The notes: generated by a model not told the origin, from the letters alone. 61,427 nt of DNA from a virus (IMGVR_UViG_3300029179_000001:1-61427); one strand, 5' to 3'; numbered from the stretch's first letter, positions 442 through 58,870 are shown. Program-made: numbers and translations.

Positions 442-831
442 ATGCGCAATCTTCTTGAACCAGCAGTCGACCAATACCGCATACGGACAGCGGAAGCCTT
501 TGCTATCTTCAAGGGAAGCTTCGGCAACGAGTTTGCGGGAGCGTTTCTTGTCCCCTCCCCTATCGATGGAAAAATGCTGAAGGTTCTTGCGACAATTGAT
601 GGTGAGCCGGGTGATTCTATGGAGTGGGAACACCTATCAGTGTCACGTCAGAACCGTATTCCCAACTGGACCGAAATGGATTCAATGAAGCATCTGTTCT
701 TTCTACCTGAAGAGGTTTGCTTCCAGATTCATCCTCCAGTTTCCGAACACGTCAACATTCACAACAACTGCCTTCACATTTGGAGGCCAGTCAGCGGATC
801 GATCTACATGCCGCCAAAGAGGTTTGTGTGA
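442..831 (+). CDS. Conserved phage hypothetical protein
   Basis: WEHLSVS...P.W.EM...K..FF...HPP....VN.H..CLH.W pattern common in phages; abuts the dnaE stop. Confidence 0.7.
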   Translation: MRNLLEPAVDQYRIRTAEAFAIFKGSFGNEFAGAFLVPSPIDGKMLKVLATIDGEPGDSMEWEHLSVSRQNRIPNWTEMDSMKHLFFLPEEVCFQIHPPVSEHVNIHNNCLHIWRPVSGSIYMPPKRFV

Positions 832-1043
832 TGGCTAATTACAAGTCAGACCTTATCGATGTTGAAGGGCAAATCATTTATGATAAGCCCGAGAAGAAAG
901 CCATTCTATTCAAGTGGGACGATAATAAAGAGGCTGTCTGGCTTCCCCGGTCTCAGATCGAATATGTCAAGAAGCCATCATCAAAGACCTTGTGGGTTGT
1001 AACTCTCCCGCAATGGCTCGCAGAAAGGAATGACATGCTATGA
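831..1043 (+). CDS. Hypothetical protein
   Basis: ATG at 831 coupled to the upstream TGA; WLPRSQI motif. Confidence 0.6.
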   Translation: MANYKSDLIDVEGQIIYDKPEKKAILFKWDDNKEAVWLPRSQIEYVKKPSSKTLWVVTLPQWLAERNDML

Positions 1044-1234
1044 ACAACAAACCTCTGCCCTGCCCATTTTGCGGCTTCCCTCCTGTTGTTGAAGAATGGT
1101 TGGGACGTGACAAGCGGGGCAATATCACAATCTATTGTAATCATGAGTTCTGTTCGATTGGCCCTGCAGCTATTGGACGGACATTCTCGATTGCCCTTCA
1201 ATACTGGAACACGAGGGATGGGAAACAACAATGA
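1040..1234 (+). CDS. Lar-family restriction alleviation-like Zn-finger protein
   Basis: LPCPFCG...C....C...WNTR signature. Confidence 0.65.
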   Translation: MNNKPLPCPFCGFPPVVEEWLGRDKRGNITIYCNHEFCSIGPAAIGRTFSIALQYWNTRDGKQQ

Positions 1235-1458
1235 CTCAAATACTTATTCCCTTTTCTGGGCTAGAACTGATTCAAGTTGAACCTGGAACAGTCATCAAGG
1301 ATGATAAGACGGGGGCGCAATACACTGTAACAGATGATATGTCTGTTTACCATGGAACAAAAATGTACATGACTCAAAAGGTCTATGAACAGCTCAAAGC
1401 AGTGATTCAGGAGAAGGACTATGGCAAAGACGAAAACGGAAAACCAATCCTCAACTAG
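1231..1458 (+). CDS. Hypothetical protein
   Basis: ATGA coupling to the upstream ORF. Confidence 0.55.
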   Translation: MTQILIPFSGLELIQVEPGTVIKDDKTGAQYTVTDDMSVYHGTKMYMTQKVYEQLKAVIQEKDYGKDENGKPILN

Positions 1459-1690
1459 CAATGAGCGCAAGGAGATTGAAGTGCTCAATGCTGAATACGG
1501 AAAAGGGAAGGGTTACAAGTACAAGCATGTAGATGGTAAGGACAGTTATGAGTTTGTCGAGGCGGGTGCTGCTAAGTGCCGCATAGATGGAACATGGTAC
1601 ATTGCTGTGTACTACCGCCAATCCAGCGGAATGCTTTGTTGTACTGCTGCTGACCGTTGGCGGCTAAGGTTTCAAAGGGTTTCCAAATGA
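1421..1690 (+). CDS. Hypothetical protein
   Basis: RBS (GGAGAAGGAC) upstream; stop overlaps the helicase start. Confidence 0.55.
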   Translation: MAKTKTENQSSTSNERKEIEVLNAEYGKGKGYKYKHVDGKDSYEFVEAGAAKCRIDGTWYIAVYYRQSSGMLCCTAADRWRLRFQRVSK

Positions 1691-3378
1691 GCAAGATCAA
1701 GATTGTCATCGAGAACGGATGGGCGAAAGCGGAAGCCCCTTTCCCTTATGCCTTTGTTCTGTTGGTCGCGGGATTGAGTGGCCGGAAGATTTGGAACGGA
1801 AGCAAGACTGTTTCTTTCGAAGCAATCAAGGTCAACATGAAGAAACTTGCAGCATCGAGTCTTGAGTTTGATTATGAGGATAAGGGGAACCGGCTTTCTG
1901 AACTGGCTGAGCTCGAAAACCTCGCAACGCAGAATTCATTCGTTGCAGAAGTGAAGACCCATTACAAGCCAAAGCTTCCCCTCTTTGATCACCAAAAGAA
2001 AGCAATCAATCTTTCCGCGCAACGTCAATCATATGCTTGGTTCCTTGAAATGGGATTGGGTAAGTCAGCAATTGGCATCACCAATGCAGGAATGTTGTAC
2101 AAGGAAGGTAAGCTGACTGGATGGCTAATCATCGCTCCAAAAGGCGTTCATCGCCAATGGCTAGAAGAACAAATCCCCCTTCACATGGATCCATCAATCA
2201 AGGTGAATATGATCCTTTGGCGTGGGAAAGATATTGACACACGTGTTTTCAACAAGTCTAAGGTTCTCAATATCTTCTCCATAAACATTGATGCTATACG
2301 GACACCAGATGGACGGGATTATGCGACCGATTTTCTTAGGAAGCATTCCGGGAAATCAATGATGTTGATTGATGAGAGCCACTTGATTAAGAATGGAACA
2401 GCGAGCCGGACACGTAATGCTTGGAACCTTGGAAGGATCGCAACCTATCGCCGCATCATGACTGGAACACCAATCTCCCGGAACATTGTTGATGCGTGGT
2501 CTCAGTTTATGTTCCTCAATCCAGACATCTTGGGACACAAGTATGTCGGAACTTTTAAGGCCAGGTACACAATCATGGGAGGATGGGAAGGCAGGAATAT
2601 CGTTGGCCAAAAGAACACTGAGGAGTTCTACAGCATAATTGCCCCCCACTCCTATCGTCTCACGAAGGCGGAAGCCCTCAAGCTTCCTCCCAAGATTTAT
2701 TCGAAACGTGTCTATGAGTTAGGCCCTCAAGTTAGGCGGCATTATGAAAACCTCAAGAACACGTTCATGACTGAGATGAATGATGGAAGCATTGTGGATG
2801 TAAAGTCAGCAATTGAAATGATCTTGCGCCTCCAGCAAGTTGTTTGCGGATACCTTCCTATTGGCGAGGGGGAGGTTGAGGTTATTTCAGATGAACGAGT
2901 TCAAGTCCTACTTGACATTGTGGAGCAAATTGAAGGGAAGATTATTATCTGGGCACGCTTCATCGAGGATATCAAGCGCATTGAGGCAGCACTTAAGAAA
3001 GCTTCCAACCAGAAGATTGTAACCTATTACGGCGCAACAAAGTCCAAGGACCGGGAAGCAGCAGTCAACAGATTCAATTACGGTGATGCTCGTTTCTTTA
3101 TCTCCAATCCAGCAGCAGGCGGTACAGGACTCAATCTACAAATTAGTGGATGCACGGACGTTATCTATTACAGCAATGACTTCGATGCCCTTCACCGTTG
3201 GCAATCCGAGGATCGTGTTCACCGGATGGGAACTGTAGGAGCAGTCAACTACTATGATTTGATTGCCCGGAACACTGTTGACAAGATGCTGCTCTCAAAC
3301 CTTCAACGCAAGAAGAACATATCCAGTTTGACGCTGGACGAAATACGCTTAGCAATCTCTCAAGGAGAAGAACAATGA
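1687..3378 (+). CDS. SNF2-family (SF2) DNA helicase
   Basis: EMGLGKS (motif I), DESH (II), MTGTP (III), GGTGLNL (V), QSEDRVHRMG (VI). Confidence 0.93.
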   Translation: MSKIKIVIENGWAKAEAPFPYAFVLLVAGLSGRKIWNGSKTVSFEAIKVNMKKLAASSLEFDYEDKGNRLSELAELENLATQNSFVAEVKTHYKPKLPLFDHQKKAINLSAQRQSYAWFLEMGLGKSAIGITNAGMLYKEGKLTGWLIIAPKGVHRQWLEEQIPLHMDPSIKVNMILWRGKDIDTRVFNKSKVLNIFSINIDAIRTPDGRDYATDFLRKHSGKSMMLIDESHLIKNGTASRTRNAWNLGRIATYRRIMTGTPISRNIVDAWSQFMFLNPDILGHKYVGTFKARYTIMGGWEGRNIVGQKNTEEFYSIIAPHSYRLTKAEALKLPPKIYSKRVYELGPQVRRHYENLKNTFMTEMNDGSIVDVKSAIEMILRLQQVVCGYLPIGEGEVEVISDERVQVLLDIVEQIEGKIIIWARFIEDIKRIEAALKKASNQKIVTYYGATKSKDREAAVNRFNYGDARFFISNPAAGGTGLNLQISGCTDVIYYSNDFDALHRWQSEDRVHRMGTVGAVNYYDLIARNTVDKMLLSNLQRKKNISSLTLDEIRLAISQGEEQ

Positions 3379-4487
3379 CCTTCGATCACTACAAAGTGCT
3401 CGCTCAAAAGCGGCTTCCCAAAATGTTCTTCGATTACATTGAAGGAGGATCGTGGGATGAGTCGGGTGTTCGGCGGAACCGGGAAGCGATAGATGGGATT
3501 GAGGTCATTCACAGGGTCTGCGTTCCTTGGGATAATCTTTCGCTTGAAACGAGAATTGTGACTCAGAAATCCTCAATGCCTGTTTATCTTTCGCCTTGCG
3601 GATTGACTGGAATGTTACGTGCCAATGGTGAAATTCTAGCTGCCAAGGCCGCTGCTGAAATAAACATTCCATATTGCTATTCTATGATGAGCATCAATGA
3701 CTTGACGTACATTCCTAATCCGCCAGAATGGAACAAGCTTTGGTTTCAACTTTATCCATTGAAGGATCGAAAGATTATGGAATGGATGATTGATCAAGCC
3801 AAGTTCAAGGAATGCTCTGCACTTGTCCTTACACTCGATGCTCCTGTTATTGGAACACGAATGCGTGATATACAAAATGGGCTTTCCGTTCCTCCCCGCT
3901 TTAAGATGAAACACATTTCACAAGTCATGTCCAAGCCCTTTTGGTTTATGGATCAGATGTCGAGTGATAGCTACACCTATCAATTCCTTTCCCGCGCGCT
4001 AGGCGGAGGCACGATCCCTTCCCTTAGTTCTTGGGTCAAGACTCAAGCTGATCCAACTTGGGACTGGGATGGGGTTAAATGGATAAGGAACATTTGGAGC
4101 CGGAAGCTAATTCTGAAAGGGCTTCTCCATATCCATGATGTAGCTTCAGCATTCAAGATAGGAGCAGACGCTGTGATTCTATCTAATCATGGAGCGAGAC
4201 AACTCAATTTCTCTAGCGCTCCTGTTGATGTATTGTCAGAAATCGCCCGCCAGTTTCCGAAGAATGAAATTATGATTGATGGTGGAGTACAAAGTGGATG
4301 CGATGTTGCGAGACTTCTTGGATTGGGAGCTACAGCGGTAGGAATTGGACGGGCATATTTGTACGCACTCGCGGGCAGCGGGCAAAATGGAGTTTCTTCC
4401 TTCCTTTCCTCAATGAGCCATGACCTTCTTTCGGCGCAAATTCTAGCAGGGATTGAGTCCCGCTCCCGCTCGCTAGGGGAGGTTTAG
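3375..4487 (+). CDS. lldD: FMN-dependent alpha-hydroxy-acid dehydrogenase (L-lactate dehydrogenase LldD-like)
   Basis: FDYIEGG, WFQLY, TLD...G.R.RD, LILKG, SNHGARQL, DGG..SG.D and GRAYLY motifs. Confidence 0.88.
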   Translation: MTFDHYKVLAQKRLPKMFFDYIEGGSWDESGVRRNREAIDGIEVIHRVCVPWDNLSLETRIVTQKSSMPVYLSPCGLTGMLRANGEILAAKAAAEINIPYCYSMMSINDLTYIPNPPEWNKLWFQLYPLKDRKIMEWMIDQAKFKECSALVLTLDAPVIGTRMRDIQNGLSVPPRFKMKHISQVMSKPFWFMDQMSSDSYTYQFLSRALGGGTIPSLSSWVKTQADPTWDWDGVKWIRNIWSRKLILKGLLHIHDVASAFKIGADAVILSNHGARQLNFSSAPVDVLSEIARQFPKNEIMIDGGVQSGCDVARLLGLGATAVGIGRAYLYALAGSGQNGVSSFLSSMSHDLLSAQILAGIESRSRSLGEV

Positions 4488-4755
4488 GACGTTTCGCCGG
4501 AAGCCCTTCTAGGATCGAAGGGTGACACCGCCCGCTGGCCGTTCAGGGGAGGAAGGGGATTAGAAGCCCCTCCCCGCTCCCGGTAGCGTAGCGGCTTCCT
4601 AGCGTGCTAGGCTCTAGGACACGAAAGTCTCCATAATTCTTGTGTTTTTGGGTGTCTCTCCCTCCCGTCCCCTCATACATCCCTATATGGGCCTATATAT
4701 AAAGACAGCATTAACCTAGCTCGCTGGTATCCTCCTAGGGCTCACTTTCTTTCTT

Positions 4756-4782
4756 TCTTTCTAACATATTTCAGCGTATAAC
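4756..4782 (+). promoter_or_regulatory. Candidate early promoter
   Basis: Pyrimidine tract then TATAAC upstream of the early array; TCTTTCTAACA..TTTCAGC recurs at 43782-43799. Confidence 0.35.
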
Positions 4783-5164
4783 ACTGCGTGTTAGTGAGAG
4801 CGGAACGCCCCTAACCTGCTGTTTGAAATGTAAATCGATCTTGAGGCTTTCCGTGACCAAGTCACAGGATTAGCGCCTCTCCCCTTTCCCCCTCGCCAGC
4901 GCTCGACAGTAGCCAGAGCCGGGAAACGTCTTTAGCCCTATCCGCCGCGATATGATCGCGGGTTTCCGAATAGGCCATAAGCAGAGGGAAGGCAGATAAG
5001 CTAACCGCCGCAGTGTCCCAAGCCCCTCACTCCCGCTCCCGCTTCTCTAGCGCGCGAACGGTAGGCCCTAGAGCCGAGCAGTTGAGTTGATCCCGCTTCT
5101 AATTGAAATTGTAAACGTCTAACCCGGAACACCCTAGCAAGGTGTTTCGATAACATCCGCAAAA

Positions 5165-5241
5165 TCGAAACAAAGAGGGAAGCGACCGCGTTTCCTTCTT
5201 TGTATTGCGTGTTGAGCAAACGCAACTGATGAGAAGCTCAA
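5165..5241 (+). ncRNA. Hammerhead ribozyme, type II with pseudoknot
   Basis: C-GAAA (5166-70), long stem III, GUA cleavage triplet (5202-04), stem I UUGCGU/ACGCAA, CUGAUGA-G (5226-33); loop I UUGAGC pairs with 3' GCUCAA. Confidence 0.88.
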
Positions 5242-5259
5242 ACAAAAAGGACCACGACA

Positions 5260-5490
5260 ATGAATATCGAAATCATCAATGCTGACTTCCTCTCAATGTT
5301 CAAGGGAAAGGAGCGACCGATGAACAAGCCTAGCATCGGGGAATTTTTCAACTACACAATCCGTACTCCTCGCGGGATTGAGGCGGATAGCCTTCGCTTC
5401 TCTCAAACATCAGCACAAGCTGATCATTCTGAAGAGGTTGCGCGCCGCGAATACCTTGCGCGCTACTCGTTGACGCTGGAGGCTTTGTAA
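5260..5490 (+). CDS. Early hypothetical protein
   Basis: AAAGGACC RBS; first ORF after the ribozyme. Confidence 0.65.
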   Translation: MNIEIINADFLSMFKGKERPMNKPSIGEFFNYTIRTPRGIEADSLRFSQTSAQADHSEEVARREYLARYSLTLEAL

Positions 5491-5693
5491 TGAGCTGGAA
5501 GCGCAATCAAACTGGATGGATTGTGAAACATTGCAACCTTCACGGAGTCATGACAATCTACTATGAGCCAATGACTGTTGTTGAAGTGGATAAAAACGGA
5601 CACATCAAACTGTATCGCAAGGGACACAACGAAAACCGGCACCACAAGTCCAAAAAGGCTTTCAATGAAAGCTTCGTTCATAACAGGAGCTAG
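5490..5693 (+). CDS. Early hypothetical protein
   Basis: TAATG coupling with a GGAGG RBS. Confidence 0.6.
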   Translation: MSWKRNQTGWIVKHCNLHGVMTIYYEPMTVVEVDKNGHIKLYRKGHNENRHHKSKKAFNESFVHNRS

Positions 5694-5696
5694 CTG

Positions 5697-5867
5697 ATGG
5701 AAATCCTGATTGCTATCTGGCTCATGCGCCGCGCCTATCATGGTGTGTGGCCATTTGAATTTCTCCGGCTCAAAGACGGGACATCTGCAAAAGACCATTT
5801 TGTTTCAACCGTCCCCGCACGTGCGGAGAAACCCAACCTCACTCTCATCAAAGGATCGAAACAATGA
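5697..5867 (+). CDS. Small early protein (56 aa, not in ORF track)
   Basis: AGGAG RBS; MEILIAIWLMRR...KGSKQ; stop overlaps the next ATG. Confidence 0.55.
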   Translation: MEILIAIWLMRRAYHGVWPFEFLRLKDGTSAKDHFVSTVPARAEKPNLTLIKGSKQ

Positions 5868-5971
5868 CTGAACGTCAAATTCACTACACCCTCATTGCGG
5901 GCTTATTGCTTGCTATCTCTGTCTGCTGGATTGTTGGAGGCTTCCTTGGCCTAGGGGAGTTGCCACAATGA
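5864..5971 (+). CDS. Small membrane peptide (35 aa, not in ORF track)
   Basis: AAAGGA RBS; ATGA overlaps at both ends; one hydrophobic helix. Confidence 0.55.
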   Translation: MTERQIHYTLIAGLLLAISVCWIVGGFLGLGELPQ

Positions 5972-6696
5972 CCCTTACCCCTGAACAACGGCGATCTATC
6001 GCAGACAAGATAAAAGCCCTTCTCTCTAAGACAGTCGACAACGGTGCCAGTGAAGCGGAAGCAATGGCTGCCGTTATGATGGCTCAAAAGCTTATGGATA
6101 AATATCAAATCACCATGAGTGAAACTGAGGTGCAAGAGGAAGGCTTCTTGCATGAATCAATTAAGATAACCGATTGCTATCACCGCTGGTTCTGTCATGG
6201 AACAGTGAATGCTATTGCTGAACTGACCAATACAAGAGCGATCTATCACGGCAGCAAAAGCATCTTGTTCTATGGTTATGGGCAAGATGTTGAGTTTGCG
6301 TCTTGGGTCTATCGCTCCCTGCGTGACCTTATCGTGAAGGCATCTGTTCAGCATTCGAATTCTGATCCTGAAAATTCCTCCTACATGCTGCGCAAGTCAT
6401 TTATCTTTGGCGCTGCTTCCCGGATTTCCTCCCGCATGTACAAGGAAGTGCGCGAACGCGAAGCCGCGCGGGAAGGGTTTAGCAAAAGCACAGCTCTTGT
6501 TGTTGTCGACAGAGGGACTTTGGTCGACAACAAGATTAAAGAAATGTTCCCCAAGCTAGGGAAAGCAAGCCATCAAAGCTCAAGGAACCTATCCGTGGAA
6601 GCCTTCCGCGCTGGTCAAGCCAAGGGCGATAATGCCCGCTGGGACAAGCCAATTGAAACTAAGCCTAGCCACAACATCAAACTGATCAACAACTAG
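5968..6696 (+). CDS. DUF2786-domain protein
   Basis: KIKALL......ASEAEA..A...AQKLM.KY N-terminus; RKSF..G C-terminal motif. Confidence 0.75.
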   Translation: MTLTPEQRRSIADKIKALLSKTVDNGASEAEAMAAVMMAQKLMDKYQITMSETEVQEEGFLHESIKITDCYHRWFCHGTVNAIAELTNTRAIYHGSKSILFYGYGQDVEFASWVYRSLRDLIVKASVQHSNSDPENSSYMLRKSFIFGAASRISSRMYKEVREREAAREGFSKSTALVVVDRGTLVDNKIKEMFPKLGKASHQSSRNLSVEAFRAGQAKGDNARWDKPIETKPSHNIKLINN

Positions 6697-6713
6697 AGAA
6701 AGGACCGACTACA

Positions 6714-7103
6714 ATGAACAAGGACCGCAGACAGGAAATTTCTGATGTGCTCAACTACATTGTGAGTTTCACATCTTCACTCGAACAATTGTTCGATCAG
6801 GAATTTGCTGTAAGTTTTGAACATGGAAAATCAAGAACTGTCAAGACAGAAACAGCAAACATCGTTCAACACCTTGAACGGATCAAGGAAGATATTGAAG
6901 ACATCAAGAATGCTGAGGAGGAATACAAGGACAATCTCCCGGAAAACCTTCAGTCAAGTGAACGGGCGGGGCAATCTGAAAATGCTATCTCTTCCCTTGA
7001 AGATGCCTACAGTGCTATCGAGGAAACCCTTGAGTGGTTTACGAATGAAGAAGCGGACAGCAAGCTTCAAGAAGCAATTGATGCATTGGGAGGGATTGAA
7101 TGA
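6714..7103 (+). CDS. Acidic helical conserved phage protein
   Basis: MNK.RR... and EEEY.DNLPENLQ.SER pattern; AAAGGACC RBS. Confidence 0.65.
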   Translation: MNKDRRQEISDVLNYIVSFTSSLEQLFDQEFAVSFEHGKSRTVKTETANIVQHLERIKEDIEDIKNAEEEYKDNLPENLQSSERAGQSENAISSLEDAYSAIEETLEWFTNEEADSKLQEAIDALGGIE

Positions 7104-7318
7104 AAAGACGTGATGAAATCCCTACTTGCTACACTCGCAAGAGCCTGCGTCAGTCAACCAATGCTCAAGATGAGAAGCTGAAAGAGCTAAAGGCCAAAAT
7201 GATTGGCCTCACAATCTTCGGAACCGTCAAGGCTGCGACTAGGCATCATGTGTTCCTAATCGAGCGTGATGGCTTCGTGTCGATGAAAGCTAAGGCGTAT
7301 GCGAGGTGGGTCCGATGA
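7100..7318 (+). CDS. Hypothetical protein
   Basis: ATGA-coupled at both ends. Confidence 0.55.
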   Translation: MKRRDEIPTCYTRKSLRQSTNAQDEKLKELKAKMIGLTIFGTVKAATRHHVFLIERDGFVSMKAKAYARWVR

Positions 7319-7692
7319 CGCGCATCAATGTTGTTCCTCCTGGCGAGCTATCCCGGCTCCACTTAATTGCGGAATACCGGGAGTTGCCGAGAATTTTTAA
7401 TCTTGTGAAGGCAGCTCAAGGGAAGGGGCACACGCCGCAAACCCTCAGCAAGAAAATTCCTCCCCATTACACAATGGGGAAGGGACATGTACTGTTTTTC
7501 TTCGACAAATTGGCTTGGCTAGAGAAGCGGTACAATGCTGTTGTCCGGGAAATGATTTGTCGTGGATACAACACCCGCTATCAATATCCCCCAACAGCAG
7601 GCATCAACAGGAAATGGTTCGGCGATTATCGCCCAACCAACATTGCACGCGAAATCAACCGTCAACGAATCAAGGAAAGGACCAAGACATGA
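7315..7692 (+). CDS. denV: Pyrimidine-dimer DNA glycosylase (T4 endonuclease V family)
   Basis: MTRIN N-terminus, AEYRELPRIF, Y.MG.GHV.FF.DKL. Confidence 0.92.
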   Translation: MTRINVVPPGELSRLHLIAEYRELPRIFNLVKAAQGKGHTPQTLSKKIPPHYTMGKGHVLFFFDKLAWLEKRYNAVVREMICRGYNTRYQYPPTAGINRKWFGDYRPTNIAREINRQRIKERTKT

Positions 7693-7976
7693 GTAAGCAA
7701 GACATGAGTAAGAAAGTGTTGACTGAACTTGAATGGGAGTATGTCGCCAATGAAGCAATCTTCTTCCAGCTTGAAGACAAGATCAATGAGTTGGATCCTG
7801 AATCATCGCCCGAAGAAATCGCCGCCCACAAAGTGACGGTTCAAGAAGAGGCGTTCGCAATCGCGTATGAGCGATTGAAATCGATGGGACAAAGACACAA
7901 GGAAGCCTTTGCCATCGCCAAGAGAGTCAGCCAACGCTACGGCATTGCGGTGACTCATCACGATCAAAACCTGTAA
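7689..7976 (+). CDS. Hypothetical protein
   Basis: AAAGGACCA RBS; ATGA overlap with denV. Confidence 0.55.
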   Translation: MSKQDMSKKVLTELEWEYVANEAIFFQLEDKINELDPESSPEEIAAHKVTVQEEAFAIAYERLKSMGQRHKEAFAIAKRVSQRYGIAVTHHDQNL

Positions 7977-7998
7977 CCCTAAAGAAAGGACTACCAAG

Positions 7999-8895
7999 AT
8001 GACGACCATTGCAACAATTGTTCCAGCTCCTGTTGAACGCGCACTCTTAGAGCGGCCCAATGGGTTCACCAACATGCGCAATTTGCGCCGCCCGCTTACG
8101 GAAGATGAGATGAAGCAATATGCTTCCTCTCTTTTTGCGAAGCACAAGCACGATTCACGCAGCGAGAAATACACGTACATTCCAACCATCGACATTATCC
8201 GCTCCTTGCGCAAGGAAGGGTGGGAAGTGTACGCAGTCTCTCAAGGTGGAGCACGCGCTAAGGAGCGGCGTGGCTTCACAAAGCACCTTGTGCGCATGCG
8301 CCGTCCTAATGAAGAGGTCAAGGCAATCGGCGACACTGTTGGTGAGCTAATCCTCCGCAATGCTCACGATGGGACATCGTCCTACAAGATGCAATGTGGA
8401 TGGTTCCGCTTAGTCTGTCTGAATGGAATGATTTCCTCCGACAAGGAGCATCCTGAATTCTCGATCAAGTTCCCTCACCGTGGCGACATCATTCGTGAAG
8501 TCACGGATTCATCGTACAAGATTATCGGCCAGATGAAAATTGCCGCCGATCAAATCAAGGCGATGAAGGGGCTTCAGTTGAATCTCAAGGACCAGCGTTG
8601 GCTTGCTAACGAGGCAATCAAGCTTCGCCATGAAGATCACGTCATTGCCGTCTTGACTGCTGACTCTGTCCTGACTGCAAGACGCAAGGAGGATACGGGC
8701 AATGATCTCTGGAACACGTTCAATCGTATTCAGGAGAACATCACGAAGGGCGGACAACGCTATTACACCTTCGAAGGAAATGAGCAGCGGCGCAATACGA
8801 CGCGCGCATTGACTGGCGTTGTTGCTGATACGAAGGTGAATAGTGGGTTGTGGAGCCTTGCTGCCGATCTGCTTCACAAGAGAAGCGCCAACTAG
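7999..8895 (+). CDS. DUF932-family protein
   Basis: RS.KY.YIPT, FTKH.VR.R, N.HDG.SSY, FR.VC.NG, DLW..FNRIQEN. Confidence 0.88.
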   Translation: MTTIATIVPAPVERALLERPNGFTNMRNLRRPLTEDEMKQYASSLFAKHKHDSRSEKYTYIPTIDIIRSLRKEGWEVYAVSQGGARAKERRGFTKHLVRMRRPNEEVKAIGDTVGELILRNAHDGTSSYKMQCGWFRLVCLNGMISSDKEHPEFSIKFPHRGDIIREVTDSSYKIIGQMKIAADQIKAMKGLQLNLKDQRWLANEAIKLRHEDHVIAVLTADSVLTARRKEDTGNDLWNTFNRIQENITKGGQRYYTFEGNEQRRNTTRALTGVVADTKVNSGLWSLAADLLHKRSAN

Positions 8896-8908
8896 ACCAA
8901 TGTAATGA

Positions 8909-8950
8909 GAAAGAAAGATTAGGTTCATTCAATCTTTCTTTCTTCTTTCC
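8909..8950 (+). terminator. Inverted repeat / candidate terminator after DUF932
   Basis: AGAAAGAAAGATT pairs with AATCTTTCTTTCT, followed by a pyrimidine run. Confidence 0.45.
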
Positions 8951-8972
8951 TTTCCTCACGAAAAGGTCTATC

Positions 8973-9032
8973 GGGAGCGGGCATTCGATTTGCCTAGGTG
9001 GTTATGGTCCTTTCCATCTAGTGCCCGCTCCC
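8973..9032. ncRNA. Candidate structured small RNA (hairpin with anti-RBS loop)
   Basis: 11-bp outer stem, 8-bp inner stem, loop TTATGGTCCTTT. Confidence 0.4.
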
Positions 9033-9098
9033 CCTCTGCTTTCGAATCAGCTAGCAGAGGGGGAGATCATTAGAAGGATCGAGCGCAGGAGAAGGGCC

Positions 9099-9413
9099 AT
9101 GAAGCATTCTGAATTAACAGAAGACATTCTGGATGTGTCAGAAATACCGGACAAAATGCTGATTGTTTGGATTGAGAATGATTGTCAACTCCTCTTTCCA
9201 ATAGGCTATGAACCAGTAACATCCAAAATGATGATGGCTGTTGAAGCGATTGTCAACAGCATCACACAACACAATCCAGTTTGCGATCCTAATTGCATGT
9301 CTTGTAAATTTTCGCAAATTCTGGCTGAAAAAATCTCTAAAACAATCCTGTCATTTTCGAAAAACAATCCTGAATTAGCAATGATGGAGGCGAAAGGACA
9401 AACAAAACAGTAG
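9099..9413 (+). CDS. Hypothetical protein with Cys cluster
   Basis: AGGAG RBS; HNPVCDPNCMSC. Confidence 0.55.
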   Translation: MKHSELTEDILDVSEIPDKMLIVWIENDCQLLFPIGYEPVTSKMMMAVEAIVNSITQHNPVCDPNCMSCKFSQILAEKISKTILSFSKNNPELAMMEAKGQTKQ

Positions 9414-9443
9414 TGCTTAAAAAGGACAACACGGAGTTACACA

Positions 9444-10430
9444 ATGAGCAAGATGGAATATGTAGTGACTTGGATGGAGGCGAAAAATCCTCAAACCAAG
9501 TCATTCGGCTCTGAGTACAGGGCAAAGGACAAGGCAGTGGAAATGTCCCAGATGTGGGGCATTGCTGAAGTGCATCAATGGAATGACGGGGAAGACAAAA
9601 GCTTTCATCCTCTTGGTTGGCTCCAGAAATGGACCTACACCAAAGGGCGTCTTTCCGGTCAATTCGATCCTCCAGGACCAGGGCCAGGCAACGAGCCAGG
9701 TCCAAACAAAGTCAAGTCAGCGGAAGCCTCTGCGGTTGAAGCTGGATTGATGAAGCCAGAAGAGGTTATTGGCGATGGCCTTGACCTTCCTGCTTCACTT
9801 GATCGCAAGAAGAATGGAATCAAGCCAGCCTCATCGCCCATTAAACCGGGATCATCGACTGGCTCCGCTTTCTCTCCCTCTTCTGCGAGCAAGAAGAACG
9901 TGCCTATCAACCCAACATCAAAACAGGAGACTACCATGACTGAATCTCAAACCGAAACCAACACTGCAACAACCAAGAAGCCCGCCGCCAAGAAGGCTTC
10001 CCCTCCCGCGAAAAAAGCAGCCGCAAAGCCCGCCGCCAAGAAGGCAGCAGCGAAAGTGCCCGCCAAGAAGCCGGCAGTCAAAACGGCCAAGAAGGAAGGC
10101 AAGCCCAAGAAGGAAAGCAAGCCCAAGGTCGAAGCGAAGCCATATGTTGGCCCCCACGAGAAAATCTGGGAAGCCATCGGCCAAAAGACCACTTCGAAAA
10201 TCGGCATGCTGTTGGCCCTTCTCCTCAAGAATGAAGGCAACCAAGTCAAGCTGTCGAAGGTGACGCAGGTTGTCTATGGCGGTGATGAGGAGGCTGCTAG
10301 CGGCTTCAATACACGCGTTAACCAGCTGGTCTCCGACATCGAAGCATCCACAGTCGCCAAGCGTGTCGAGATCAAGCGGGAGCGCAAGACAGCTGACAAG
10401 GAAGGAACCATCGGCATCTACATCAAGTAA
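9444..10430 (+). CDS. Histone H1-like Lys/Ala/Pro-repeat DNA-binding protein (likely second start at 9936)
   Basis: KKPAAKK repeats; in-frame ATG at 9936 preceded by AGGAGACTACC. Confidence 0.7.
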   Translation: MSKMEYVVTWMEAKNPQTKSFGSEYRAKDKAVEMSQMWGIAEVHQWNDGEDKSFHPLGWLQKWTYTKGRLSGQFDPPGPGPGNEPGPNKVKSAEASAVEAGLMKPEEVIGDGLDLPASLDRKKNGIKPASSPIKPGSSTGSAFSPSSASKKNVPINPTSKQETTMTESQTETNTATTKKPAAKKASPPAKKAAAKPAAKKAAAKVPAKKPAVKTAKKEGKPKKESKPKVEAKPYVGPHEKIWEAIGQKTTSKIGMLLALLLKNEGNQVKLSKVTQVVYGGDEEAASGFNTRVNQLVSDIEASTVAKRVEIKRERKTADKEGTIGIYIK

Positions 10431-10441
10431 GCCAGGAGGAA

Positions 10442-10735
10442 ATGAAATTGGCTTTCACTCTCAATGGGGAAGCCAAGCTGAAATATTCTCCATCGGAGCG
10501 GCTTGTGTTTGAAATTCTTGGACGCAAGCTGCTCCCGGTCCCTTCAACAGCAATTGTGTATCAATTCTACAAGGCCAAGAAGCAACAAGCCCCGTACAAC
10601 TCGCGTGCGATTGTTATGGGGTCTTGCCGCAGTCTTGTCCAGAAGATTGAGATCAACAAGGAACCGTTCACCATCAAACGGATCAAGCATCAAGGGAACA
10701 AGGTTCTGGAGTATCAGCTTGTTGAGCGCTCGTGA
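10442..10735 (+). CDS. Basic protein, possible winged-helix
   Basis: AGGAGG RBS; helix pattern resembles a winged HTH. Confidence 0.55.
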   Translation: MKLAFTLNGEAKLKYSPSERLVFEILGRKLLPVPSTAIVYQFYKAKKQQAPYNSRAIVMGSCRSLVQKIEINKEPFTIKRIKHQGNKVLEYQLVERS

Positions 10736-10742
10736 CGACATA

Positions 10743-10774
10743 GGGTCACGCAGAATAACCTGCGTGACCCGTTT
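10743..10774 (+). terminator. Hairpin terminator candidate
   Basis: GGGTCACGCAG/CTGCGTGACCC 11-bp stem followed by GTTT. Confidence 0.5.
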
Positions 10775-10797
10775 CCTATTCAACAAAGGAACGTACC

Positions 10798-11247
10798 ATG
10801 TTAAACATTTTCGATGAGGCTGCCGCAACAATGCGGCGTGCAGTTCAAGAACAAACTAACCAACTCCTATCAGAGATCAAGTCAGCCAACGATCAACTCA
10901 ATTCTGCTCAAGTAGAGTTTGATCAAGAGATCAATGCAATCCTCAAGGACTATTCGACCCTTGAAGGTGGCATCATCAAGGAGCGTGCTGCTCTAGACGA
11001 TAAGGAACGGCGCAACAAACTCCAGCTACAACAGCGGGAGAAGGCCGCTAGGGATAAGCTACTGGACGTTATGTCGGACGCGCGGGCTGTTCTACATGCT
11101 GTTCATATACAAATCAACGCTGGCGTAATGTACACAGGCTTCGATGCGGGCGAGAAGGACAACAGCGCAAAATATCCTACGGCTGCTGTTGAGAGACGCG
11201 ATTCAATGCCGCTCCAGCCATTAGCGAAGAAAGAGGGGGATCAATGA
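10798..11247 (+). CDS. Coiled-coil hypothetical protein
   Basis: AAAGGA RBS; heptad-rich sequence. Confidence 0.6.
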   Translation: MLNIFDEAAATMRRAVQEQTNQLLSEIKSANDQLNSAQVEFDQEINAILKDYSTLEGGIIKERAALDDKERRNKLQLQQREKAARDKLLDVMSDARAVLHAVHIQINAGVMYTGFDAGEKDNSAKYPTAAVERRDSMPLQPLAKKEGDQ

Positions 11248-11441
11248 GCAGGGTTGATGTTGGGGTTAAGCCCCCTAGCCGGGAACGCAGCTATCTTGGG
11301 GATGGGGTGTACGCAAGCTTCGATGGATACCATATTGTTCTCGAAACAATCAATGGAATGTCTGTAACTAATCGTATTCTCCTAGAGCCAGGAGTGTACG
11401 CATCCCTAACCCTCTACATGGAAAAACTAGGGAAGGAATAG
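11244..11441 (+). CDS. Conserved phage hypothetical protein
   Basis: YLGDGVYA.FDG motif. Confidence 0.6.
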   Translation: MSRVDVGVKPPSRERSYLGDGVYASFDGYHIVLETINGMSVTNRILLEPGVYASLTLYMEKLGKE

Positions 11442-11474
11442 CCTTCCCAACAACTCATCAGAAAGGACTCATCA

Positions 11475-11627
11475 ATGAAAACCATCTATCAATTGATCAA
11501 GGAAGGCTTCAAGAAGCAATTCAGCAGGAAGCCAACTCCTCTTGAAGTGGCTCACAACCTTCCGAAAGGGGCTAGCGACAGTCAAGCAATGCTGGCAATG
11601 GTTGCTGCGCTGGAGGACCAATCATGA
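11475..11627 (+). CDS. Small protein (50 aa, not in ORF track)
   Basis: GAAAGGAC RBS; stop overlaps the next ATG. Confidence 0.55.
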   Translation: MKTIYQLIKEGFKKQFSRKPTPLEVAHNLPKGASDSQAMLAMVAALEDQS

Positions 11628-12094
11628 CCAAGCTGTATGTCGCCTCTAGTTGGCGCAACACGGTCTACACCACCCTGCTTCAAAATCTTCGTGATACAGG
11701 GCACGAGTGCTATGATTTCCGCAATCCAGGGGATGGGGATGATGGCTTCTCTTGGAGCAAGGTTGACCCGGAATGGAAATCATGGACGCTCGATCAGTAC
11801 AACAATGGCCTGCTTCATCCTGCTTCTCAGCAGGGATTTAAGCTAGACAAGTCTGCCCTCGATTGGTGTGAGCAGCTTGTCCTAGTCCTTCCTTGCGGCA
11901 AATCAGCTCATGTGGAAGCGGGTTACGCATCAGGCTGTGGCAAGAAAGTTCACGTGTACATTCCGCAGGGAATGAAAGAAGATTACAAAGGCAATCCCAT
12001 TTGGGAGCCAGAGCTCATGTACCTTCTCTTCACGACAATTTGCGGCAACTTGGACGGGCTCAACTATGCCCTTCACAAGCACCGTCCAAAGTGA
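11624..12094 (+). CDS. Nucleoside 2-deoxyribosyltransferase-like protein / nucleotide N-hydrolase
   Basis: LYVASS, D..ALDWC..LVLV, G.SAHVEAGYA.G.GK with the catalytic Glu position retained. Confidence 0.7.
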   Translation: MTKLYVASSWRNTVYTTLLQNLRDTGHECYDFRNPGDGDDGFSWSKVDPEWKSWTLDQYNNGLLHPASQQGFKLDKSALDWCEQLVLVLPCGKSAHVEAGYASGCGKKVHVYIPQGMKEDYKGNPIWEPELMYLLFTTICGNLDGLNYALHKHRPK

Positions 12095-43683: not shown

Positions 43684-43710
43684 AATAAACTCCTATCTGT
43701 TATGAGTCAC

Positions 43711-43849
43711 TTGTCGTAGCGTAATACCCTTCACCCCCGTTCTTACCTTTTCTATACTCTACTCTAATATTATACCCTTCCTCTTTCTAACATTTCAGCC
43801 GGAATATAGAAAGATATAAACGGGGGTGAAAGGGTTTACGCTACGACAA
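43711..43849. repeat. ~31-bp inverted repeat around an AT-rich spacer (candidate origin)
   Basis: TTGTCGTAGCGTAA..CCC.TTCACCCCCGTT mirrored at 43819-43849. Confidence 0.75.
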
Positions 43850-43982
43850 ATTACATTAAGTCATTGTTCCTCCTCCTTTTATGGACCACGATCCGAAGCT
43901 GATTGTCATCACATTACGGAATTGAGATGCGTAAAATCAGCATTTTTCGTCCTTTTTTCACAATTTCTACCCCCTAATTTCA

Positions 43983-46310: not shown

Positions 46311-46601
46311 GGATTGGTCCTCTTGGTTTTCTAGGGATGAATGATTCCCTGTCGCGCCGCTACTATTAGAACGAAACAATGATAGAAAAAAGAGGGGTTA
46401 ATTTATTTTCTGAAATCTTCAAAAATTGCTACTTCATTAGAAATCCTGAAAATACCGTAACGACATGGAGGGAATCAGTATCGATTGAAACGAATATTGA
46501 ATCACTTAAGCCCACAAATAAATCAAATAGACTTTCTTCAATGTTTTCGTGTAACCTCTTCCCGCTCCTAATTCCGGGAGCACAAAACAAGGGAATAGAC
46601 G

Positions 46602-58445: not shown

Positions 58446-58870
58446 TGGAAAACATTGATCTCAATAAACTGCGCCGGGAACTCATAAAGATACGGGAATG
58501 GGCTCAAAACTACATCGATAAGCTACAGCCCCCTCCCGCAACAGAAGCAGGCTCCCTCCCTATCAATCCCCCTCCTCCAGCAGCTGCGCAAGTTATTGCA
58601 GGCGCTTCTCCGCGTGCTGCGGATGCTGCGTCAGCAAAAGAGGTTGATAAGAAGCTTCCGATGTTGGTGTGGAAGAAAACATTGAAGGGCGGATACACTC
58701 CAGAGTTTTGGCCTCATGGAGAGGTTGTGATTGGAGGACAAAGCAACAGCTACGTCAAGGCATACAATGTGTCTAATCTTCACTATGGTCTTTCAATTTC
58801 AATGTTGACAATTCACTATCCATTGCCTGATGAGTTTCATCAAAAACCTATTGGGGAGAAAGCATCTTGA
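58442..58870 (+). CDS. Hypothetical protein
   Basis: Coupled at both ends; Pro/Ala linker. Confidence 0.55.
   Translation: MMENIDLNKLRRELIKIREWAQNYIDKLQPPPATEAGSLPINPPPPAAAQVIAGASPRAADAASAKEVDKKLPMLVWKKTLKGGYTPEFWPHGEVVIGGQSNSYVKAYNVSNLHYGLSISMLTIHYPLPDEFHQKPIGEKAS

Follow-up and report, generated by a model that had tools for sequence, protein, structure and literature searches.

Hammerhead ribozymes of type II beside phage genes have been known since 2011, and a further one in such a place is unsurprising in itself. According to the portions of Perreault et al. 2011 (PMC3088659) drawn on here, stem II of these ribozymes is commonly as short as two pairs, and in the consensus loop I and the 3' tail immediately behind stem II are joined by a pseudoknot, which has at least four pairs in the majority of members. 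In the same portions, a metagenomic ribozyme with a stem II of 1 base pair (bp) and a pseudoknot of 6 bp cleaves fast; its activity is destroyed when the pseudoknot is shortened or mutated, and pairs added to stems I or II of this construct lower it. Hammerheads of this kind are also stated there to flank prophage genes often, and for halovirus HF2 a polycistronic transcript is described whose mapped 5' end lies at most 3 nucleotides (nt) from the hammerhead cleavage site. Three type II hammerheads near phage-like genes of Desulfovibrio vulgaris cleave in vivo and in vitro, as reported in the part of Olzog et al. 2021 (PMC8782182) considered here, and a 2019 review (PMC6765202), in its corresponding part, describes the roles of bacterial ribozymes as largely elusive, with processing of polycistronic transcripts having been suggested. 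We describe here a motif at positions 5165-5241, plus strand, of a viral record of 61,427 nt (IMGVR_UViG_3300029179_000001), the whole of which was analysed and is called the window below. In our judgement the motif quite probably encodes a genuine type II self-cleaving ribozyme, the likely role of which, as we infer, is to uncouple the downstream mRNA from what lies upstream.

The hammerhead motif and its relatives

Reading of the sequence from 5160 to 5260 found a complete type II hammerhead at 5165-5241 of the plus strand, with the catalytic core intact. Its parts are:

5165-5166, plus strand: 3'-side strand of stem II (U11.2, C11.1), pairing with A5234 and G5233; 100% of cells paired in the family alignment
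5167-5169, plus strand: core G12 A13 A14, read from the sequence and aligned with the RF02276 consensus
5170-5203, plus strand: stem III hairpin of 15 bp (5170-5184 with 5189-5203), with ACCG as the loop and A15.1-U16.1 as the closing pair
5204, plus strand: A17, with the predicted scissile bond A5204/U5205; GUA triplet 5202-5204 in hammerhead register
5205-5225, plus strand: stem I hairpin of 6 bp (5205-5210 with 5220-5225), 9-nt loop 5211-5219
5212-5217, plus strand: loop I strand of the pseudoknot, UUGAGC, complementary to 5236-5241
5226-5232, plus strand: core C3 U4 G5 A6 U7 G8 A9 (CUGAUGA), from the sequence and the RF02276 consensus core
5233-5235, plus strand: 5'-side strand of stem II (G10.1, A10.2) and the single spacer A5235, identical in 14 metagenomic relatives
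5236-5241, plus strand: 3'-tail strand of the pseudoknot, GCUCAA, pairing with loop I

The conserved CGAAA stands at 5166-5170. Stem III is closed by A5170-U5203, and the cleavage-site nucleotide H17 is A, i.e. not G. Of its 15 pairs, 13 are Watson-Crick (87% complementarity) and two are G-U (G5177-U5196 and G5182-U5191); because these become A-C mismatches on the other strand, stem III is specific to plus-strand RNA. Two minus-strand open reading frames (ORFs) that run across the site (5001-5225 and 5099-5260) were considered and rejected, as they have no Pfam match and the G-U pairs favour the plus strand. Loops cap stems I and III, and stem II, with its 2 bp (C5166-G5233 and U5165-A5234), is open. 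The G-N-A arrangement at 5233-5235 is that of the RF02276 consensus tail, and after the one spacer A the pseudoknot between loop I and the 3' tail forms 6 of 6 Watson-Crick pairs. The initial annotation had proposed this core with its stems, GUA site and pseudoknot, and all of its coordinates were borne out base for base; the description as type II with a pseudoknot of loop I and 3' tail likewise stands, the family's typical layout being present. It had further remarked that stem II is only 2 bp long, which is right as to length but no oddity, since the Rfam consensus models 2 bp and the literature calls this common. Judged from the sequence, the motif is very probably a real type II hammerhead.

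The 86-nt stretch holding the motif folded (RNAfold) with a z-score of -3.88, and 1 of 200 shuffles folded as well. Stems III and I were both present in the minimum-energy fold and were kept when the whole 772-nt intergenic region was folded. A pairing of the 3' strand of stem III (CCUUCUUUGU) with a near-repeat in the leader (5240-5250), by which AAGGA would be masked until cleavage, was set aside, since the 15-bp hairpin, being local, should easily outcompete it. A descriptor consisting of the core, A15.1-U16.1, an H17 other than G, stems I and III each 4 bp or longer and a stem II of 2 bp or more was also run on both strands of the window. The site at 5165-5241 was the one match. Any such minimal match appeared in 11 of 300 dinucleotide shuffles and one with stems I and III both of at least 6 bp in 0 of 300, while a 6-bp pseudoknot, measured in register, was reached in 7 of 2000 shuffles of loop I.

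A search of viral contigs with a pattern made of the core and closing pairs of the site gave 50 loci, and a descriptor-valid type II hammerhead was found in 37 of them, often several per contig. When the pattern ended in the stem II, spacer and pseudoknot start of the window (GAGAAGC), 10 viral loci were obtained, with hammerheads only in L085 and L087, which are identical. The other eight (L083, L084, L086 and L088-L092) were rejected: they represent one near-identical GC-rich stretch in which the stems are not formed, a chance match to the core pattern and likely a conserved coding region. An exact 17-mer from the ribozyme led to 6 viral loci, which were read as chance coding matches and not as hammerheads. 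In metagenome contigs the GAGAAGC pattern gave 50 loci, 33 of which parse as hammerheads of identical geometry, 14 of them distinct; the remaining 17 failed the strict descriptor and were left outside the comparison set.

The 14 metagenomic relatives have the same stem II (U-A/C-G), the same spacer A and a pseudoknot starting with GC. They have an A-rich 5' flank and leader, with an ORF start 18-35 nt past the pseudoknot in most, and they sit in short intergenic gaps before genes unrelated to those of the window. In the closest relative, L119, loop I is CUUGAGCAA versus GUUGAGCAA in the window and the tail is GCUCA; its stem I (UAUGUA/UGCAUA versus UUGCGU/ACGCAA) is changed on both sides in 4 of 6 pairs and on one side in one pair. 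The pseudoknot of L122 and L127 is UGGC/GCCA. All 15 sequences, i.e. the 14 relatives and the window, form at least 4 pseudoknot pairs, beginning with the base next to the spacer; at position 3, 2 sequences have U-A and 13 have C-G, and at position 4, 8 have C-G, 6 have A-U and 1 has G-U.

A subgroup covariance model was built from the 14 relatives, the window being left out. It matched the window at 5160-5248 with 48.9 bits (expectation value, E, 2.2e-9), a score that is not independent because the comparison set was picked with patterns of this very site, so that about 22 positions match by construction. The sole other match of the model in the window, at 46497-46522 (AAGCCCACAAAUAAA; 12.1 bits, E 1.2), covers the tail only, near the start of the second plus-strand block and without a ribozyme body, and is probably due to chance. 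Over 100 sources the model gave 81 matches, 55 of them distinct. In the alignment of these 55, which was fitted to the structure of the model and has many rows that are close kin, standard pairs were found in 90.0% of pair cells versus 68.6% after shuffling, and 0 of 500 shuffles reached any of five measures. Pairing fell to 31-45% when partner columns were slid by 1-3 positions. Changes on both sides were seen in 14 of 19 pairs, including 6 of 6 in stem I, 3 of 5 in stem III and 4 of 6 in the pseudoknot; the pseudoknot columns are paired at 63% overall, as they fall out of register in subgroups whose stem II is 4 bp or whose spacer is longer. Members of the subgroup might already be among the alignments (Dataset S1) or figures of Perreault et al. 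2011.

Paired hammerheads, 290-980 nt apart (most about 430-670) and bracketing one small ORF, were observed in related metagenome contigs. Examples are L127, with copies at 590-657 and 1022-1089 (432 nt apart), and L108, with copies at 5100-5174 and 5578-5647; pairs occur likewise in L098, L099, L104, L105, L109, L111, L114, L128, L129, L132, L139 and L141. In pairs of the L108 type, the A-rich spacer before the pseudoknot strand of the upstream copy is lengthened by three A.

Leader, shared module and proposed role

Downstream of the ribozyme, and around it, three further features are needed for the argument:

5242-5259, plus strand: A-rich leader containing AAGGA (5247-5251) 8 nt ahead of ATG 5260; unpaired in the fold of the 3' product
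5260-5490, plus strand: first ORF past the ribozyme, 76 amino acids, no known family; its stop overlaps the next start (TAATG)
5150-5276, plus strand: shared module of 5' flank, ribozyme, A-rich leader, ATG and first codons, by nucleotide similarity to the metagenome contigs L122 and L127

As annotated initially, the hammerhead stands on the coding strand directly before an open reading frame, 25 nt separating stem II from ATG 5260. The 3' product of cleavage was no more structured in folding than its shuffles (z +0.32) and kept the stem I hairpin at its very 5' end. The position of type II hammerheads relative to starts was analysed for 32 distinct ones from the 50 viral loci (stems I and III 5 bp or longer, stem II 2 bp or longer, window excluded). 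A Shine-Dalgarno-like tetramer followed by the start of an ORF of at least 45 amino acids was found within 60 nt downstream of 24 of the 32, which are not independent because several belong to one subgroup; for random positions on the same strands of the same loci, the count was 699 of 6400 (10.9%).

The ORF behind the window's ribozyme has an alternative in-frame start, ATG 5320, with AAAGGAG at 5307-5313, a better Shine-Dalgarno sequence than that of ATG 5260. Only two homologues of the 76-amino-acid product were found, of 55 and 56 amino acids; both begin at the residue matching Met21 (ATG 5320), and the N-terminal 20 residues of ORF 5260 are missing from both. In the ESM Atlas ORF 5260 had no usable feature match, and the structure matches, obtained on a poor model (predicted local distance difference test, pLDDT, 0.48), named no family. 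The start is thus ambiguous, ATG 5260 or ATG 5320, and the cleaved leader therefore measures 55 or 115 nt. The 55-nt leader initially proposed ahead of ORF 5260 agrees with the length of 5205-5259, but it extends to 115 nt if ATG 5320, where the homologues begin, is the start used.

The window has in common with L122 and L127 its 5' flank and core, the loop I/pseudoknot region and GACAATGAATAT, followed by GAAA after one differing base. ATG 5260 lies within the shared stretch, and the proteins behind it differ; more generally, the genes behind hammerhead modules differ from contig to contig. One reading that would fit both facts about the start codon is a hammerhead-leader-start module joined in frame to a conserved 56-amino-acid gene. 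We put forward only tentatively, and think it rather doubtful as a whole, the wider proposal that about 5150-5276 is a portable expression cassette, composed of A-rich flank, pseudoknotted type II hammerhead, unstructured A-rich leader, start and first codons, which would move between unrelated aquatic phages and stand before unrelated small accessory ORFs, its repeats acting as gene-shuffling junctions. Here it would have landed in frame ahead of the conserved 56-amino-acid gene, adding 20 residues. If this were true, every such ORF would have a 5' end set by its own ribozyme and capped by a hairpin, whatever was transcribed upstream.

The same module, about 125 nt long, could also act mainly as DNA, that is as a repeated homology patch for the swapping of small accessory genes, with RNA cleavage being secondary. 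This is compatible with a genuine ribozyme at 5165-5241, and we consider it improbable as the explanation of the module. The likeness of 5150-5276 to L122 and L127 up to the first codons, with unrelated proteins behind, would be expected of such a patch, and so would the tandem recurrence of modules within contigs, as with the two in L127. Contigs with such hammerheads also share almost no genes with the phage, as 4 tblastn matches were obtained with the window's ORFs of at least 50 amino acids against 110 loci. However, the compensatory changes preserve RNA pairing in the pseudoknot as well as in stems I and III, and therefore argue for selection on the RNA and not on DNA identity; moreover, the record holds one copy, which is without a partner for internal recombination.

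For a self-cleaving ribozyme that uncouples the downstream mRNA, the course of events would be as follows. The site would be transcribed within a plus-strand RNA crossing 4488-5259, as suggested by gene orientation. Given the full agreement with the features of the family, this RNA should fold and cut itself between A5204 and U5205. The upstream product would end in the 15-bp stem III hairpin and GUA with a 2',3'-cyclic phosphate, and it would include 4488-5164 if that stretch is transcribed through. The downstream mRNA would carry a 5'-OH where the stem I hairpin begins, with its first base paired, and would continue with the unstructured A-rich leader into the small ORF, starting at either of the two ATGs. 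Hairpins at 3' ends hinder 3' exonucleases, and 5' ends that are paired or not monophosphorylated are a poor entry for attack of the RNase E or RNase J type. With a 3' hairpin on one and a paired 5'-OH end on the other, both cleavage products could thus be stabilised, although the effect of a 5'-OH on mRNA stability depends on the host RNases. The most likely role would be that the mRNA of the downstream small gene is uncoupled from upstream and receives a fixed, hairpin-capped 5' end before its ribosome-binding site, the ribozyme serving as a natural insulator or as a processing site in a polycistronic phage transcript. The initial annotation had the ribozyme process the early mRNA, which is the field's standard hypothesis for such ribozymes in the part of the 2019 review cited (PMC6765202) but still an unproven one; the label early for this gene block is inferred from gene content only.

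An active ribozyme could also act negatively, its 5'-OH end being attacked by a 5'-end-dependent RNase of the host, which would make the downstream mRNA shorter-lived or restrict read-through from the upstream operon. We regard this as unlikely, although the sign of the effect is fixed by nothing in the data. The nearest terminases come from cyanophages (42.9% identity), and cyanobacteria own both RNase E and RNase J. A precedent is glmS, where RNase J1 attacks after cleavage, according to the same part of the review (PMC6765202). At 5205, however, the 5' end of the 3' product is paired from the first nucleotide in a 6-bp hairpin, which would hinder such an attack, and the occurrence of the module before many different ORFs with good ribosome-binding sites fits a part that enables expression better than it fits a destabiliser.

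Beyond the limits given with the subgroup score and the 55-member alignment, several observations weigh against an active ribozyme that uncouples the downstream mRNA. Stem III, at 15 bp, is longer than in any comparator (maximum 10 bp; 4-10 bp in the relatives). Small changes of helix length near the pseudoknot can lower the rate by orders of magnitude, as stated in the portions of PMC3088659 used here, and activity is therefore unreadable from the sequence alone. Given the ambiguous gene start, a position directly ahead of the ribosome-binding site may fail to apply to the start actually used. A simple consensus scan of 4300-5500, which leaves other promoter types uncovered, found no sigma-70-type promoter or intrinsic terminator, and transcription of the site is therefore argued from gene orientation alone. 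Around distant helicase relatives (25 loci, 25-51% identity) no convincing type II hammerhead was found, the descriptor matches there having only 3-4-bp stems, and two Synechococcus phages with the nearest terminase and the Pseudanabaena phage Pan1 gave noise-level matches or none. The Rfam scan of the window yielded no match at gathering score, and an all-family scan of the whole window at E <= 1 did not list the hammerhead site. The Infernal search with Rfam models, suggested initially as a check, gave an alignment of 5163-5242 with RF02276 (Hammerhead_II) over its full length (model positions 1-66 of 66) but missed the cut-off of 37 bits with a score of 25.2 bits; E was 0.0026 in an all-family scan of 201 nt and 1.8e-4 with this family alone on the 61-kb record.

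The score losses relative to RF02276 arise from a 20-nt insertion for the long stem III and from A in place of the consensus C at the cleavage site. The alignment also draws the pairs of stem II one position off the C11.1-G10.1 register and flags one of them as non-standard. The tails read G-c-A-G-C-C-a in the consensus and G-A-A-G-C-U-C-A-A in the window, both with a 2-bp stem II, a spacer A and a pseudoknot strand from GC. Since the covariance model leaves the pseudoknot unscored, the latter adds support outside the Rfam score. For calibration of the cut-off, RF02276 was run on five other viral records with type II hammerheads found by the descriptor. The scores were 42.2, 35.5, 35.3, 27.4 and 24.6 bits, plus one at 12; a match above 37 occurred in 1 of the 5 records only, and nothing at E <= 1 was obtained in two records with two and three descriptor-valid motifs. 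The score of 25.2 bits is within the range of phage hammerheads, and missing the cut-off therefore weighs little; the value of 37 is conservative for phage members. Among other hammerhead models, RF00008 (type III), RF00163 (type I) and RF02277 (HH10) gave no match at E <= 1 in the record, the blank for RF02277 being weak because its control search also gave no match anywhere; RF02275 (HH9) gave 12.9 bits (E 0.12) at 58815-58865.

A decayed or fortuitous look-alike that folds with no useful cleavage rate and no processing role would be in keeping with the score below the Rfam cut-off, with the only hammerhead of any type in a record whereas related modules are often paired, with no copies having been found in related phages, with the atypically long stem III and with the sensitivity of the rate to helix geometry (PMC3088659, in the portions cited), but it is the least probable of the alternatives, as an unselected relic would be expected to lose some of the invariant core and of the perfect 6-pair pseudoknot in family register, a motif with stems I and III both of 6 bp or more appeared in none of the 300 shuffles, and the geometry is the same as in 14 natural relatives.

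Upstream stretch and gene neighbourhood

The viral record, 61,427 bases in all, comes from a tailed phage and has a completeness estimate of 68% and a guanine plus cytosine (GC) content of 48.5%. Genes for tape-measure, tail, portal and large terminase lie on the minus strand at about 12.2-46.4 kb, and plus-strand blocks stand at either end of the record. In a collection of named phages the nearest terminases were those of the two Synechococcus phages (73% of the protein aligned, at 42.9% identity); that of Pseudanabaena phage Pan1 was a more distant match. This similarity is a lead toward a cyanobacterial host, short of a demonstration. The hammerhead-bearing stretch is present in two DNA sequencing runs of one aquatic study, from which it may derive, and among the runs listed as holding it there were none of RNA sequencing. 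Close relatives of the locus were found neither in viral contigs by protein-guided scans (with ORF 5260, the DUF2786 protein and the flavin mononucleotide (FMN) dehydrogenase), nor in metagenome contigs with the DUF2786 protein, nor in the phage collection by megablast of 4500-9500 and blastn of 4440-5330. The features upstream of the hammerhead are:

1040-1234, plus strand: small ORF marginally similar to the restriction-alleviation protein Lar (27.4 bits; cut-off 28.6)
1657-3378, plus strand: SNF2-type helicase gene, upstream of the hammerhead
3375-4487, plus strand: gene of an FMN-dependent alpha-hydroxy-acid dehydrogenase or oxidase (PF01070, E 2.4e-101)
4488-5164, plus strand: non-coding stretch of about 680 nt from the FMN dehydrogenase gene to the hammerhead, with no ORF having a family match

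The first plus-strand block contains ORFs from 717 to 12094, and the ribozyme lies on its coding strand. With plus-strand genes upstream from 717 onward, the ribozyme therefore splits a co-directional block and is not at its head. The initial view that it leads the early gene array was accordingly abandoned, the helicase/dehydrogenase block preceding it. It stands at the 3' end of the largest gap of the record (4488-5259, 772 nt). Downstream follow three small ORFs that overlap or abut, and after them come a DUF2786/DUF7168 protein, a pyrimidine-dimer glycosylase and a DUF932 protein. The Lar-like ORF at 1040-1234 fits an early, anti-defence-type plus-strand block. The FMN dehydrogenase (3375-4487) has no PHROG match and is a possible auxiliary metabolic gene, the nearest terminases being those of cyanophages.

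The stretch 4488-5164 is C-rich, with a GC content of up to 61%. A search of 4450-5200 for a second ribozyme or another known RNA (Rfam, E <= 5) gave none, save a match to a microRNA model at E 1.2. The release of an upstream RNA of about 400 nt, as claimed initially, found no backing: no mark of a 5' end, no promoter- or terminator-like site and no second ribozyme was seen, and the RNA released upstream might range from a short leader to the entire helicase/dehydrogenase mRNA. A motif some 21 nt long, which starts with CCCGCTCCCG and continues with CTAG or TAGCG, was noticed in three copies, at 4459, 4573 and 5032; its 11-mer, with at most 1 mismatch, occurs 10 times in the window versus 0.7 expected. 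CTAG itself has 11 sites in 4443-5137 versus about 1.5 predicted from the window average (134 in 61.4 kb). The stretch 4443-5164 also includes several C-rich, G-poor tracts, and as a whole it may be a regulatory region or contain Rho-utilisation-like sites. The sequence TTGAAAT(N)GTAAA has only two copies in the window, 4823-4838 and 5103-5118, the second about 60 nt upstream of the hammerhead, and may be a promoter element of a type not yet known. Elsewhere, a large inverted repeat at 43706-43854 (45-nt arms, 82% complementary, 59 nt apart) lies in the gap between two minus-strand genes, beside a primase-like gene, and may be an origin or a terminator.

Comparison with known systems

The site is an ordinary addition to a well-known family, the phage role of which is still unproven, and its phage context is typical. 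What sets it apart is a stem III of very great length, a long upstream non-coding stretch and its being the sole copy in the record. With RF02276 it shares the identical core, the closed stems I and III, the open stem II of 2 bp, the spacer A, the pairing of tail and loop I and the phage context. It differs in its score (25.2 bits versus the cut-off of 37), in stem III (15 bp versus about 6), in H17 (A versus C) and in the pseudoknot, which is the 6-bp UUGAGC/GCUCAA in the window versus UGGY/GCCA in the consensus.

The hammerheads of Desulfovibrio vulgaris, likened here by description only, are also of type II and stand beside phage-like or hypothetical genes, and their 2',3'-cyclic phosphate and 5'-OH ends were captured in vivo (PMC8782182, in the part considered); they differ in lying in chromosomal or prophage loci of a cultured bacterium. 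Halovirus HF2, again compared by description, has its ribozyme just before the first ORF of a multi-gene viral transcript, as here, but it is an archaeal virus with a core-variant hammerhead for which a salt-dependent role was proposed (PMC3088659, portions cited). The glmS ribozyme is likewise a self-cleaving RNA in a bacterial 5' leader that decides the fate of an mRNA, as set out in the relevant part of PMC6765202. Its fold is another one, it is activated by a metabolite, and its cleavage destabilises the mRNA; at 5165-5241 no ligand site is evident.

The metagenomic subgroup (L119, L122, L127, L133, the L085 group and others) is of the same geometry, with nearly the same loop I in L119 and with flank, leader and first codons shared by L122 and L127. 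It differs in a stem III of 4-10 bp, in its short intergenic gaps, in the two copies, 430-600 nt apart, of several contigs and in its unrelated genes. Within this subgroup, which is small but coherent and comes from aquatic metagenomes, the ribozyme moves with its leader and start codon in front of unrelated small ORFs, an arrangement that bears on the question whether hammerheads of this kind are natural insulators for phage mRNAs. A portable ribozyme-leader-start module across unrelated aquatic phage contigs is the most interesting thread of the analysis. The site itself is a clean example of a hammerhead right before a gene. RiboJ is an engineered insulator that goes back to a plant satellite RNA hammerhead with a different topology. 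In insulators of this type the hammerhead is placed between the promoter or upstream RNA and the ribosome-binding site, and cleavage leaves a constant, hairpin-headed leader, an arrangement to which that at 5165-5241 may be likened.

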